This document shows, in pieces, positions 7,850 to 31,663 of a stretch of 32,670 nucleotides of DNA; within the stretch, counting starts at the first letter, position 1; each line of letters starts with the position of its first letter. Below the pieces are notes generated by a model, which was given only the letters and a program-made list of their open reading frames with translations, ran no database searches and was not told the DNA's origin. The position numbers and the translations under genes were made by a program. This DNA comes from a virus. The stretch lies in UHGV virus genome UHGV-0203498; one strand, written 5' to 3'.

Positions 7850-8554
7850 TTACTCGTCGTCGCCCATTTTAGCGATGATATCACCTGCCTGTTTCGTCAG
7901 GTCCGTGATGCCAAAGCTATGGCCCATCGAGATTTTCGGCTTCGCATCTTCAATAACCTGTGTCGGTTTGCTCGGAGCGCCACCTGCTGGCGTGCCAGCC
8001 AGGACGGATGCAAAATCGGCGTTATTACGGAACTCTTTTTCAAGCTCTTCCATAGTAAGGGCGGACGGTTTGCCATCCTGCAATACCCGCACTTTCAAGC
8101 TGCCGTCTTCGCCGTCTTCCAGCGCGAGGCGGTCCATTACGTGGCGTTGCATGATGCCGGCGTTCTTGCCGAACAGCTTCGACGCCAGGTCTTTGGCAGC
8201 GCTGCCGATGGTTAGATCGTGGATCTGCTTGCGGTAGGCTTCGATTTTACCCGATGTGTCTGCTTCGTATTTTGCAAACTTATCCTTCCAGGATTTATCG
8301 ATCGCTTCAAGGTCGCCATTTTTGCGCGCGGCGGCTTCCTCTTTCTCTTTCGCAAGGCGCTCAGCTTCGGCGCGGCGTTCAGCTTCTGCTTTCTTCTCGC
8401 TCACCAGCTTCGCATTGTTGTCTTTCAGACCCTTAATTTCCGCCTGCACTTCGTCAGCGGTCATAAATGTTGACTTATACCCATCGCCATCGGCAACAAA
8501 AAGCGCCTTCATACCTTCCGGCAACGCGTCGTATTCTGCTTTGGTAAGTTTCAT
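7850..8554 (-). CDS. Scaffolding protein
   Basis: Start MKLTKAEYD at 8554 preceded by AGGGGGA. K/E/A-rich, coiled-coil-like composition (AEAERRAEAERLAKEKEEAAARK). Lies immediately upstream of the capsid gene. Confidence 0.6.
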   Translation of the reverse strand: MKLTKAEYDALPEGMKALFVADGDGYKSTFMTADEVQAEIKGLKDNNAKLVSEKKAEAERRAEAERLAKEKEEAAARKNGDLEAIDKSWKDKFAKYEADTSGKIEAYRKQIHDLTIGSAAKDLASKLFGKNAGIMQRHVMDRLALEDGEDGSLKVRVLQDGKPSALTMEELEKEFRNNADFASVLAGTPAGGAPSKPTQVIEDAKPKISMGHSFGITDLTKQAGDIIAKMGDDE

Positions 8555-8644
8555 GCTATCCCCCTGGGATTGTGGCAGAGCGGGCCACCCGCTCGACTTC
8601 ACGCTTCTAATATTATCAGTGGTAAAAATAATCGCAAAATTCGC

Positions 8645-8674
8645 TTGCAATCTGGGTGTTGGTTGCACTATATT
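8645..8674 (+). promoter_or_regulatory. Putative sigma70-like promoter for the DnaN-like moron (TTGCAA-N18-TATATT), overlapping TTGGTTGCAC motifs
   Basis: TTGCAA at 8645-8650 and TATATT at 8669-8674; TTGGTTGCAC copies at 8659-8668 and 8673-8682; palindrome TTGGT-N5-ACCAA at 8673-8687 just before the RBS. Confidence 0.4.
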
Positions 8675-8703
8675 GGTTGCACACCAACAACGAGGAAATG
8701 AAA

Positions 8704-9216
8704 ATGATTAGAGTTAACTATGCCGACCTTAAGGCTGCTACGATGTGCGCCGCTACTAATGACGTCCGATACTACCTAAATGGTGTATTTTTCGACGAGA
8801 AAGGATTCATCGTGTCGACCGACGGCCACCGTTTGTTCTGCGGGTCCGCGGTTGTTCCAGAAGGTGAAAGTAAAATAGTATCAATTAAAGGCCGCTTACC
8901 TACTAAATTCGAATACTGCAACATCGACGGCACCTCCGCAGCGTTCTTCGATAGTAAAGACGTATTAATAGATACCATACCCTGCGAGATTGTAGACGGA
9001 CGCTTTCCAGACTGGAGAAGAGTTACGTCTTTCGTCAGCAATACCGTGGAGGCTATTGGGTTTAACGGGGCATACCTGGCCGACGCCTGCAAAATTGCTA
9101 AATTGTTCGACCGTAAGTTTGAGGGCTTAAAACTGGAATTCCAGGGTGTAGACAAAGCAACACGCGTGCTGTACAAAGGAGGTGCCTTCTTAGTTATCAT
9201 GCCGATGCGTTTGTAG
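8704..9216 (+). CDS. Truncated DNA polymerase III beta sliding-clamp (DnaN) homolog, 170 aa
   Basis: Translation carries DnaN signatures in order: DVRYYLNGVFF, STDGHRLF, VDGRFPDWRRV, IGFNGAYLADA and C-terminal FLVIMPMRL (E. coli DnaN: DVRYYLNGMLF, ATDGHRLAV, VDGRFPDYRRV, IGFNVSYVLDV, YVVMPMRL). ATG at 8704 is 7 nt after GAGGA. Alone on the plus strand among minus-strand head genes. Confidence 0.75.
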   Translation: MIRVNYADLKAATMCAATNDVRYYLNGVFFDEKGFIVSTDGHRLFCGSAVVPEGESKIVSIKGRLPTKFEYCNIDGTSAAFFDSKDVLIDTIPCEIVDGRFPDWRRVTSFVSNTVEAIGFNGAYLADACKIAKLFDRKFEGLKLEFQGVDKATRVLYKGGAFLVIMPMRL

Positions 9217-9221
9217 TTACC

Positions 9222-9255
9222 AAAAAGGGGGCCATTACAGCCCCCGAATTATTTT
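9222..9255. terminator. Bidirectional intrinsic terminator between the DnaN-like gene and the o-spanin gene
   Basis: Stem GGGGGC (9227-9232) / GCCCCC (9240-9245) with loop CATTACA. Flanked by A5 upstream (U5 on the minus strand) and GAATTATTTT downstream. Confidence 0.55.
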
Positions 9256-9465
9256 CTGCAACTCCAGCACTTGCGCCCTTAGCATAGCCCCGCATTCCAT
9301 ATTTTTAACATCAACCAGCAAGTCTTCGTCTGGGTCTGCCGAGGCATTCTCAAAAGTGCAAGGCGGTCTATAGACCGACTCGGTTAGCGGCGTCAATGGC
9401 ACGTTGCTTGATCCGCACGCGCTCAGCATCAAAACTGCAATCAGTACGGTCAGGACGCGTAACAT
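9235..9465 (-). CDS. Putative o-spanin (outer-membrane lipoprotein, Rz1-like)
   Basis: Signal peptide with lipobox LSAC-GSS; small Pro-containing mature region with Cys residues. AAGAGG RBS. Its start lies inside the 3' end of the upstream membrane-protein gene in another frame (overlapped spanin architecture). Confidence 0.5.
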   Translation of the reverse strand: MLRVLTVLIAVLMLSACGSSNVPLTPLTESVYRPPCTFENASADPDEDLLVDVKNMECGAMLRAQVLELQKIIRGL

Positions 9466-9679
9466 ATTTTACAACCTCTTTCGTGATAGTCCGGTATTCC
9501 ACATCGCGGGCCTGTTCGGCCTGCACTGCCCCCTCGACAACCTTAGTTTGCTGCCGTTGGGCTTTCGCTTGCGCCGCTTTCTCCTCTTTCACCACAACGC
9601 CAGCGCGGTAGGAGTCACCCAGCCAGAAGCCAACTGCCAGGCCGATAATTAATCCAATCGCTGCGTATTTAATCACGCC
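9368..9679 (-). CDS. Putative i-spanin (Rz-like; N-terminal transmembrane segment plus charged helical periplasmic region)
   Basis: GTG start at 9679 gives MIKYAAIGLIIGLAVGFWLG (TM segment) followed by KEEKAAQAKAQRQQTKVVEGAVQAEQ. The o-spanin candidate is embedded in and extends beyond its 3' end. Start codon is uncertain (TTG at 9706 is also possible). Confidence 0.45.
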   Translation of the reverse strand, partial: GVIKYAAIGLIIGLAVGFWLGDSYRAGVVVKEEKAAQAKAQRQQTKVVEGAVQAEQARDVEYRTITKEVVKYVTRPDRTDCSFDAERVRIKQRAIDAANRVGL

Positions 9680-10772
9680 ATAACCCCCGGTTTTTAAGCT
9701 GTGCAATAGTCATTAACTCACCCGCATCGGTGAACATTTTCGGCACTTTCACGCCGCGCATAATCTGGTCAGCGCGCTGCACCCCGTATAACTCCTCCAG
9801 AATATGGCGCGGCTGGCGCTGCACCCATGAGAAGAAATCAGTCTGCGCGTCTACATGTTCACTCAGCAACCGACCCGCGTCAGCCTTCAGTGCCGGACGC
9901 TTACCACTGGGCCAGTCTTCCATGCCCTTAACTTTCCACGTCTCCGTCGAACGGCAGCAATAATGCAGCTTACCCGGACCAGCGCCATACTGCGATCCAG
10001 CCACCACTTTTCCGCCGCGCTTTCCTTTGGTCTCGGGAGTGACGTCCACAGGATAAAACAGGCGATCGCGTAGCTGGCACATAGGGGAGGTATGAGTGTC
10101 CAATGTAGCCAACCATTGGCGACCTTCGAGAATATCGTCATTTGCTTTCACCATTAATTCGCGGGCGGTCGCCGCATAGTGGTTGACTGCGGACTTAACC
10201 ACGCTTGAGATGGCCTGCGCACTACGACCGCCGAGCGCGCGCCTTACGTCCGCAATTATTTCCATAGTCGGCTTGCCCTGGATGAATCCAGCGCGCACCT
10301 GATTCCCGATCTGCGTCCTGGTCCACTCAGAGAGTGAGTCAGGCCATTGCATCATCGTATTACCCTGAAACGGGTTTTTCATAGCCGTCGCTGCGATCTG
10401 CGCGCCGGTTACTACGCTCACTACCTCAACAGCTGGAACGGCAACCGCTGGCTGGATCGCTGCCGTTAATGTGTTGGCGAGATAATCAGCCTCCGTGTCG
10501 GCGAACTCCTGAAGGCTTTCTGCCAGCGCCTTAAACTCGGTGCGCAGTTCTGTCTTAACGGTCTTGTCGAGTTGCGTCAACAGTGTGGTAAGCGCCTTGT
10601 TATTCATGGACTTTTTGCCATCAAGCAACTCGGTCAGCTTCCCCAGTAGCGTGGGCCGGAACTTCTCCCACATAGCCAGCACCCTTCGCGCCTGGTCATT
10701 GCTCAGGCGCTGGGTGAAAATGTGACGGCGGATCATGCGATCCGCCAGATGTTGATTAATCGTTCTCGCCAT
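9669..10772 (-). CDS. Head morphogenesis protein (Mu F / SPP1 gp7-like minor head protein)
   Basis: 367-aa ORF immediately downstream of the portal gene and overlapping it by 17 nt. Region WLATLDTHTSPMCQLRDRLFYP resembles the Mu F-family conserved core. Confidence 0.6.
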   Translation of the reverse strand: MARTINQHLADRMIRRHIFTQRLSNDQARRVLAMWEKFRPTLLGKLTELLDGKKSMNNKALTTLLTQLDKTVKTELRTEFKALAESLQEFADTEADYLANTLTAAIQPAVAVPAVEVVSVVTGAQIAATAMKNPFQGNTMMQWPDSLSEWTRTQIGNQVRAGFIQGKPTMEIIADVRRALGGRSAQAISSVVKSAVNHYAATARELMVKANDDILEGRQWLATLDTHTSPMCQLRDRLFYPVDVTPETKGKRGGKVVAGSQYGAGPGKLHYCCRSTETWKVKGMEDWPSGKRPALKADAGRLLSEHVDAQTDFFSWVQRQPRHILEELYGVQRADQIMRGVKVPKMFTDAGELMTIAQLKNRGLWRD

Positions 10773-15649: not shown

Positions 15650-15685
15650 TTGGTTGCAGTATGGTCTCTATGTTGGTTGCAAGTC
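15650..15685 (+). promoter_or_regulatory. ATTGGTTGCA motif pair
   Basis: GATTGGTTGCAG and TGTTGGTTGCAA lie 24 bp apart, immediately beside the 15691-15716 hairpin. Confidence 0.45.
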
Positions 15686-18732: not shown

Positions 18733-18776
18733 TGCAACCAATATAACAGGGTGCCAGGGTGACTGCAACCAATATT
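18733..18776 (-). promoter_or_regulatory. ATTGGTTGCA motif pair with overlapping promoter-like hexamers upstream of gene 18711
   Basis: On the minus strand: ATATTGGTTGCAGTCACCCTGGCACCCTGTTATATTGGTTGCACACCAACAGGAGG. Confidence 0.45.
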
Positions 18777-31627: not shown

Positions 31628-31661
31628 ATTGGTTGCATAATCATATTGGTTGCATTATATT
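31628..31661 (+). promoter_or_regulatory. ATTGGTTGCAT motif pair forming a sigma70-like promoter (TTGCAT-N17-TATATT)
   Basis: Motifs at 31628-31638 and 31645-31655; -35 at 31633-31638 and -10 at 31656-31661. Confidence 0.45.
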
Positions 31662-31663
31662 GA

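Follow-up and report, generated by a model that had tools for sequence, protein, structure and literature searches.

The beta sliding clamp, the product of dnaN, is the central docking hub of bacterial replication and repair and a target for antibiotics. A shorter, UV-induced dnaN product of E. coli, beta*, reportedly consists of domains II and III; it is said to keep the whole of domain III and to work as a ring, or clamp, in the form of a trimer. The herpesvirus polymerase accessory factors UL42, UL44, BMRF1 and PF-8 are built of two full clamp domains and have a basic DNA-binding face, and the phage proteins Twort Gp168 (PDB 7EVP) and MuC of Mu bind the clamp of the host. Here we analyze a 170-amino-acid protein, referred to below as the mini-clamp, which is encoded by 170 codons at positions 8704..9216 on the plus strand of the virus genome UHGV-0203498. 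This stretch of 32,670 nucleotides, hereafter the window, belongs to a Dhillonvirus, a coliphage of the HK578/SO-1/EP23 type. The mini-clamp begins at about the same point as beta*, the start of domain II, and both keep the pocket in which clients dock, but the half of domain III that carries the interface is missing from the mini-clamp. It has no sequence homology with the herpesvirus factors and, unlike them, no evident basic face (isoelectric point, pI, 7.6). In contrast to Gp168 and MuC, it copies the binding site of the clamp and would for this reason act on the clients of the clamp, not on the clamp itself.

Is the mini-clamp a DnaN? A phmmer search against all PDB sequences returned beta clamps only (best E=1.5e-9), and a profile built from 51 family members matched E. 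coli DnaN with E=3.6e-37, covering residues 136–293 (94 bits) and, separately, 311–366 (18 bits). A preliminary description of this locus, drawn from the letters of the DNA alone, had listed five DnaN signature blocks in order; with significant DnaN homology found, these motif matches are not coincidental, and the open reading frame and all five blocks lie on 8704..9216 (plus strand) as described. In the alignment to E. coli DnaN, DVRYYLNG (8761–8784) and TDGHRL (8818–8835) make up the pocket wall of domain II (8761..8835, plus strand) and match R152, L155, T172, G174, H175, R176 and L177, all of them identical. VDGRFPDWRRV (8992..9024, plus strand) corresponds to D238–V247 and supplies the pocket residues P242, R246 and V247. 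The C-terminal beta-alpha-beta3 motif (9055..9213, plus strand) corresponds to E. coli 311–366, the second stretch of the hidden Markov model match (profile positions 130–190); it holds IGFNGAYL (9055–9078, with N320 and Y323) and VIMPMRL (9193–9213, with V360, M362, P363, M364 and R365). The C-terminus of the mini-clamp coincides with that of DnaN (MPMRL).

Curated models place the protein at a greater distance. The central domain PF02767 is the sole clamp domain of Pfam that it matches (E=2e-5), at 25.3 bits and under the gathering score of 27, and the NCBIfam DnaN equivalog TIGR00663 scores 29.9 bits against a cut-off of 137.65. Bacterial DnaN is about 366 amino acids long, carries the set PF00712/PF02767/PF02768, reaches the curated score and possesses a dimer interface, none of which applies to the mini-clamp. 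Judged by its sequence, the 170-amino-acid protein is a DnaN homologue yet not a DnaN.

AlphaFold2, supplied with the 51-member family alignment, yielded a compact model (predicted local distance difference test score, pLDDT, 96; predicted template modelling score, pTM, 0.90). The model holds three of the six beta-alpha-beta-beta-beta motifs of a clamp chain, with the middle motif lacking its helix. Foldseek matched E. coli beta at E=1e-8 in an alignment stretched over about 257 columns, which therefore points to an internal deletion. Because the register 311–366 keeps both FNxxY and MPMRL, the product is best described as domain II joined to the C-terminal half of domain III. Domain I is gone, and so are E. 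coli residues ~251–310, the N-terminal half of domain III. A second register proposed by phmmer, with query residues 104–145 on E. coli 244–284, can be attributed to the internal repetition of the clamp fold; it was dropped in favor of 311–366, which retains FNxxY, MPMRL and the pocket. The preliminary description was thus correct in calling the protein a truncated DnaN homologue of 170 amino acids, whereas its statement that the product covers roughly the final one and a half domains needs correction, since the retained parts are not continuous: residues ~251–310 are lost.

Structure prediction, one of the checks suggested at the outset, indicates a sliding-clamp fold: sequence, model and all structural neighbors are sliding clamps. 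The family to which the mini-clamp belongs, phrog_3007 of PHROGs (full-length match, residues 1–170, E=8.6e-55), nevertheless bears the label "RusA-like Holliday junction resolvase", as do the RefSeq entries NC_013600 gp07, NC_016566, NC_054640 gp28 and NC_048112 gp04. That label is all that speaks for a resolvase; no Pfam RusA match was obtained even at E values up to 10, and sequence, model and structural neighbors are those of a clamp. On these sequence and model comparisons the name looks like a propagated annotation error, and we give the resolvase reading practically no credence.

Which parts of the clamp were kept, and which were lost? The pocket for clamp-binding motifs (CBMs) has been defined as subsite I (R152, L155, T172, G174, H175, R176, L177, P242, R246, V247, V360 and M362) and subsite II (H175, N320, Y323, V344, M362, P363, M364 and R365), and the dimer interface of beta as I78, F106 and R103 with I272, L273, E298 and E304 (PMC11139829, a 2024 review). 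Of the 18 pocket residues, the mini-clamp has 17 in common with E. coli beta, against an overall identity of 31% at all aligned positions. The one change is at V344, a residue that varies among clamps (PMC11139829). The same contrast marks the family. Across 65 non-redundant members, mean column conservation, taken as the frequency of the most common residue, is 0.82 for the pocket and 0.38 for other positions (p=8e-9), and pocket residues account for 12 of the 23 columns conserved at 80% or more (p=2e-8). Most of the remaining strongly conserved columns flank the pocket, and no second conserved surface away from it was seen in this alignment. In 150 representatives drawn from different 50%-identity clusters, the E. 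coli residue is matched at a rate of 0.82 in the pocket and 0.20 elsewhere (p=5e-9).

The residues of the dimer interface, by contrast, all fall in regions absent from the mini-clamp, the alignment covering only E. coli ~131–250 and 311–366. Since both interface halves are missing, a beta-type closure of the ring around DNA is not expected. One of the DNA-facing inner helices, too, is lost in the subfamily of the window protein. As we read the topology of the clamp, each domain would set its second motif against the domain before it, so that the retained motifs would form a contiguous arc enclosing the pocket, and the deleted motif would be the one that makes the dimer contact. Domain II plus half of domain III is approximately the smallest contiguous piece that holds the whole CBM pocket. 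For the ideas put forward in the preliminary description this has opposite consequences. It is unlikely that the protein poisons the host clamp by entering the ring, as domain I and residues 251–310, and with them both interface halves, are missing. Among these ideas, the sequence data give the most support to an interaction with clamp-binding host factors, through 17 of 18 identical pocket residues and a pocket that is the most conserved part of the family.

Could the protein be a true clamp built anew? Four three-motif protomers, for example, might ring the DNA with 12 motifs and lend processivity to PolA in the absence of a dedicated loader. Three beta-alpha-beta3 motifs per chain do amount to a quarter of the 12 in the ring, beta* reportedly acts as a trimeric clamp, and the gene is associated with PolA modules. 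However, both native interface regions are absent, the middle motif lacks its helix in the subfamily of the window protein, and head-to-tail tiling would, as far as the topology allows one to judge, create a type of junction unseen in native clamps. Among the neighboring genes no clamp loader was seen, the protein has no basic character, and in two phage lineages the gene is optional. We consider such a ring improbable.

We lean instead toward a soluble, non-ring receptor for CBMs that competes for, or titrates, the clients of the host clamp, a reading that in our estimate falls slightly short of an even chance. The quarter-ring arc, exchangeable cargo that occupies an accessory slot and has a sigma-70 promoter of the phage to drive it, would bind the QL[SD]LF-type CBMs of host clients away from DNA-loaded beta. 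Candidate clients include Pol III alpha and epsilon, the clamp-loader subunit delta, Hda, Pol II, IV and V, MutS and MutL, ligase, and clamp-targeting toxins. In competition with the host clamp, these proteins would be titrated or redirected to the benefit of the phage. We infer that the pocket binds CBMs, which clients it meets, and that competition, not recruitment, is the overall outcome. A pocket outside a ring could be a strong competitor, because a monomeric beta variant binds delta about 50-fold tighter than the ring does (PMC11139829). Competition is favored because there is a single conserved surface, because the gene is dispensable and behaves like a moron, and because canonical CBMs were not found in the phage proteins. 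The conserved pocket, the missing interface regions, the horizontal mobility suggested by the gene's patchy distribution and the purifying selection acting on it also speak for the receptor. The proteome of the window contains two loose matches to a canonical CBM (2.5 expected), and the neighbors of 82 family loci contain four (5.7 expected). With motif counts at chance level, a phage partner bearing a canonical CBM was rejected, although one with a non-canonical motif may exist. In two related viral contigs (L051, 2575–2901; L054, 2563–2904), a protein of 108–113 amino acids encoded some 3 kb upstream of the mini-clamp contains a Pol II-type CBM, QLGLF. Given the overall counts, this occurrence may mean nothing.

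Several observations weigh against competition. [quoted passage not shown] They also occur in phages without an annotated polymerase, presumably dependent on host Pol III, where strong titration would do harm. In cellular DnaN, too, no part is better conserved than the pocket, and some of its retention could reflect folding constraints. Finally, the full-text literature yielded no functional study of any family member, only mentions at the level of annotation.

The replication setting is seen in Salmonella prophages, in which a homologue with 48% identity directly follows a CI-like repressor. The operon continues with a DUF2800/PD-(D/E)XK nuclease, an Enc34-type SSB, Nmad5 (or a SIR2 gene) and PolA; apart from SIR2, its gene families also have representatives elsewhere in the genome of the window phage or of close relatives. 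Exchange is seen inside this operon as well: in otherwise identical copies, Enc34-type SSB and PolA are separated by either Nmad5 or a SIR2_2-domain gene (a second Nmad5 swap site; L089, 12181–13662, compared with L090 and L091, 12120–12758). Among the 82 loci, 43 have PolA, DUF2800, Enc34-SSB or DUF5906 (primase) within 6 kb, and 42 have the large terminase within that distance. In Skarpretter, which has no annotated DNA polymerase, the homologue lies beside methyltransferases and a dUTPase; in plasmid-borne prophages, likewise with no annotated polymerase, its place is in the early region, flanked by the repressor and int/xis. A role in the leading region of conjugative plasmids was considered and dropped, as the plasmid matches proved to be either early regions of prophages or dnaN copies of full length. 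In large MOBH conjugative plasmids there is, beside dinG, dam and rdgC, a gene for a 425-amino-acid clamp homologue annotated as "DNA polymerase III subunit beta" (L095, 6509–7786, Klebsiella conjugative plasmid CP124763), which is of unusual length and distinct from the mini-clamp family.

These contexts lend themselves to a different explanation, that of a constructive replisome adaptor. Its pocket would hold a polymerase partner (host Pol III, Pol I, ligase, or phage PolA through a non-canonical motif), while a lineage-specific second surface holds a phage helicase, primase or SSB, in the manner of a UL42-type monomeric factor or a tau-like coupler. Membership in the PolA/DUF2800/Enc34-SSB operon of Salmonella prophages and a replication-module gene within 6 kb at more than half of the loci agree with it, as does the presence of the gene in polymerase-less phages that presumably rely on host Pol III; there recruitment is favored because poisoning Pol III would be self-defeating. 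The preliminary description had also thought of replication arrest in the host, yet if host Pol III were blocked in general, it would be difficult to account for the homologues in polymerase-less Skarpretter and in plasmid-borne prophages. On the other hand, the gene is dispensable: about 90% of Dhillonvirus and about 88% of Guernseyvirinae records are without it and have nearly the same replication genes. The adaptor's second surface has no conserved counterpart, canonical CBMs are lacking in the phage PolA, helicases and SSB, and a pI of 7.6 (family median 6.6), near neutral, gives no clear sign of a basic, DNA-binding character. An adaptor of this kind is possible but doubtful.

The family is large. 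Homologues were detected by tblastn in 249 phage records, the protein database holds 103 relatives, nearly all of 160–290 amino acids, and an exhaustive profile search collected about 950 clusters (50% identity) at E values up to 1e-30, of which the best 150 all measure 169–302 amino acids. Members, 170–300 amino acids long, share the blocks VRYYLNG, TDGHRL, DGxFPDWRRV, FNxxY and MPxR. The Dhillonvirus/Kagunavirus branch is the shortest and, compared with the rest of phrog_3007, is devoid of the middle helix and of a C-terminal tail that many members carry. Of the 103 relatives, 26 terminate in -AA (often -VAA, -EAA or -KAA), among them P0032, P0054–P0060, P0069, P0072, P0080–P0084, P0087, P0092, P0097 and P0103. 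In 21 of the 26 this ending sits on a tail of 15–35 amino acids past the MPxR strand, and many of these tails contain a conserved tryptophan (PAW/SW); the window protein is tail-less. The -AA tail could be an ssrA-like degron for ClpXP or a segment that folds back into the adjacent pocket.

How, then, did a gene with these relatives come to lie among head genes? The window gene sits in the head module, whereas other members of phrog_3007 are found in replication or early operons. The notion of a family that is basically a moron of the head cluster does not hold, as Salmonella prophages and many viral contigs have the gene in the replication module or in early operons; because the family is otherwise an early or replication-module gene, the head-cluster position appears to be a derived, cargo-like placement. 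Within the window's own lineage, however, the preliminary description of a moron-like gene is borne out. Its GC content is 47%, compared with 54.5% for the window (0.53 against 0.60–0.70 at third codon positions, GC3), and among the 159 phage records that match the region, all Dhillonvirus, only 16 encode the mini-clamp at 80% or greater protein identity. Unlike bacterial DnaN, the mini-clamp is phage-encoded, optional cargo.

The site of insertion is a slot between the scaffold and o-spanin genes; in every phage examined it is headed by one and the same promoter block, but its cargo differs. The mini-clamp occupies it alone in the window, SO-1 and TheodorHerzl, and Nmad5 (PF18757) does so in SECphi18. 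Both are present in phage rolling (Nmad5 followed by the mini-clamp), in EP23 (the reverse order) and in CHD5UKE2, where a 109-amino-acid protein (phrog_24635) precedes Nmad5 and the mini-clamp. In SO-1, SECphi18, rolling, CHD5UKE2, EP23 and TheodorHerzl the promoter block precedes the first gene of the slot, whatever that gene is. Nmad5 is the usual occupant, with about 146 phage records at 80% or greater identity (for instance L002, 3704–4468; L008, 1205–1969; L010, 6595–7359, equivalent to the slot 8555–9245 of the window), and the window is among the fewer cases with the mini-clamp in place of Nmad5. Nmad5 is the locus of mutations that escape the Tmn defence, and attempts to clone it failed, apparently owing to toxicity (PMC11846954). 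That paper on anti-Tmn activity in Dhillonvirus (ORF35, Nmad5) does not mention the mini-clamp, and the other Tmn literature refers to Nmad5 or T4, not to the mini-clamp. Homology between the two slot proteins was sought and rejected (hhalign of the family against Nmad5, probability 0.2%), and the defence and anti-defence models of PADLOC gave no match to the mini-clamp.

A lone insert on the opposite strand of the head module is also the pattern in Guernseyvirinae (Kagunavirus and relatives), which show it independently of Dhillonvirus, in 23 of 195 records. In Kagunavirus XY2 (L006, 2962–3483) a 45%-identical mini-clamp stands by itself on the opposite strand and flanks the spanin genes from the other side. 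The survey of related phages proposed in the preliminary description accordingly reveals a patchy presence, in roughly 10–12% of records of either group. With other moron or cargo slots of tailed phages this one shares a predicted promoter and terminator of its own, the opposite strand, a lower GC content, a patchy distribution and interchangeable occupants (Nmad5, phrog_24635). It differs from classic morons, which are carried by temperate phages and expressed from the prophage: the TheodorHerzl record has no annotated integrase or repressor, and the promoter of the mini-clamp belongs to the standard type of the phage itself.

Might the gene simply be decaying, a functionless remnant of a captured dnaN? 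Truncation relative to DnaN and scores below the cut-offs of curated models would suit a remnant. But mini-clamp alleles evolve under purifying selection (ratio of nonsynonymous to synonymous substitution, dN/dS, 0.17–0.27), about 950 clusters consist of similarly short proteins with intact reading frames, the model is compact and confident, and the gene has a dedicated promoter, ribosome-binding site and terminator. The conservation data effectively refute this reading, and we hold it to be very improbable.

The expression signals of the gene are as follows. A ribosome-binding site, GAGGA (8692..8696, plus strand), is apparent in the sequence 7 nt 5' of the ATG at 8704. An alternative ATG at 8698 follows GAGGA by 1 nt only, and for this reason the start at 8704, which gives 170 amino acids, is the likelier one. 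Upstream, a consensus scan detected a sigma-70-type promoter, TTGCAA-N18-TATATT (8645..8674, plus strand, 9 of 12 matches). Motif counting located two direct copies of TTGGTTGCAC (8659–8668 and 8673–8682) and the inverted repeat TTGGT-N5-ACCAA (8673–8687), which together (8659..8687, plus strand) overlap and follow the -10 element. These repeats make up an element of promoters throughout the phage and may represent an operator or a hairpin in the 5' untranslated region. The TTGGTTGCAC motif occurs 11 times in the window, compared with 2.5 expected, a count that none of 100 shuffles reached. It marks at least two further promoters of the same layout, near 18745 (minus strand) and near 31646 (plus strand), and the former shares with 8645–8687 (plus strand) a 21-nt block, TATATTGGTTGCACACCAACA, that contains TTGGT-N5-ACCAA. 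A phage-specific promoter family is marked by the motif TTGGTTGCA(N) (11 occurrences, 2.5 expected), with sites at 8645–8687 (plus), ~18772–18725 (minus), 31629–31662 (plus), 15650–15682 (plus), 22025 (minus) and 18007 (plus). Three of the sites are laid out as TTGCAx-N17/18-TATATT, and one promoter of the TTGGTTGCA family heads an operon that reaches the holin and endolysin genes.

Downstream of the gene, a terminator scan identified a bidirectional intrinsic terminator, GGGGGC-CATTACA-GCCCCC (9227..9245), with T-runs on both strands. The left flank is the head scaffolding gene (7850..8554, minus strand; open reading frame and annotation of SO-1, SECphi18 and TheodorHerzl), whose likely ATG, by a check for a ribosome-binding site, is at 8554. 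The right flank (9235..9706, minus strand; open reading frames and annotation of SO-1 and TheodorHerzl) consists of the overlapping o-spanin (9235–9465) and i-spanin (9368–9706) genes. Between ~3.2 and 15.5 kb the mini-clamp is indeed, as first described, the sole plus-strand gene, the tail, head, spanin, portal and terminase genes all being on the minus strand. Its portrayal as an independent unit is likewise supported by the predicted promoter (8645–8674), conserved ahead of differing cargo, and by the bidirectional terminator. The run of minus-strand morphogenesis genes is broken at 8555–8703/9227–9245, where a convergent gene intervenes and the minus strand itself carries a strong terminator. 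It follows that the portal-to-spanin genes and the downstream scaffold and major capsid genes are probably separate units or linked by read-through. No sigma-70-like promoter was found on the minus strand in 8200–9700.

The gene as such is not new. The GenBank record of phage SO-1 lists its product as "DNA polymerase III beta subunit; possible moron", and genome papers repeat the sliding-clamp annotation without remarking on the truncation (PMC9038960). The gene is already annotated and its family large, but the ring-less architecture that retains the pocket only, and its recurrence as optional cargo, are, as far as we found, undescribed. What would such a protein mean for the phages that carry it? 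A natural, stable protein of 170 amino acids consisting of the pocket alone would be new phage biology, a means of competing for the clients of the clamp or of borrowing them. It might also find practical use, offering a minimal soluble version of the pocket against which to screen inhibitors or with which to trap clients of the clamp in vivo, and the family is at hand in model coliphages such as TheodorHerzl of the BASEL collection. A bolder proposal, which we offer as speculation that may well prove wrong, is that of a free "anti-hub" that copies the pocket of the host hub alone and titrates CBM-containing proteins, whether these serve in repair and the control of replication or are toxins and defence effectors directed at the clamp. 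If this were true, replication would be reprogrammed or protected during infection, and the presence of the gene in about 10% of two coliphage lineages would reflect host-specific conflicts.

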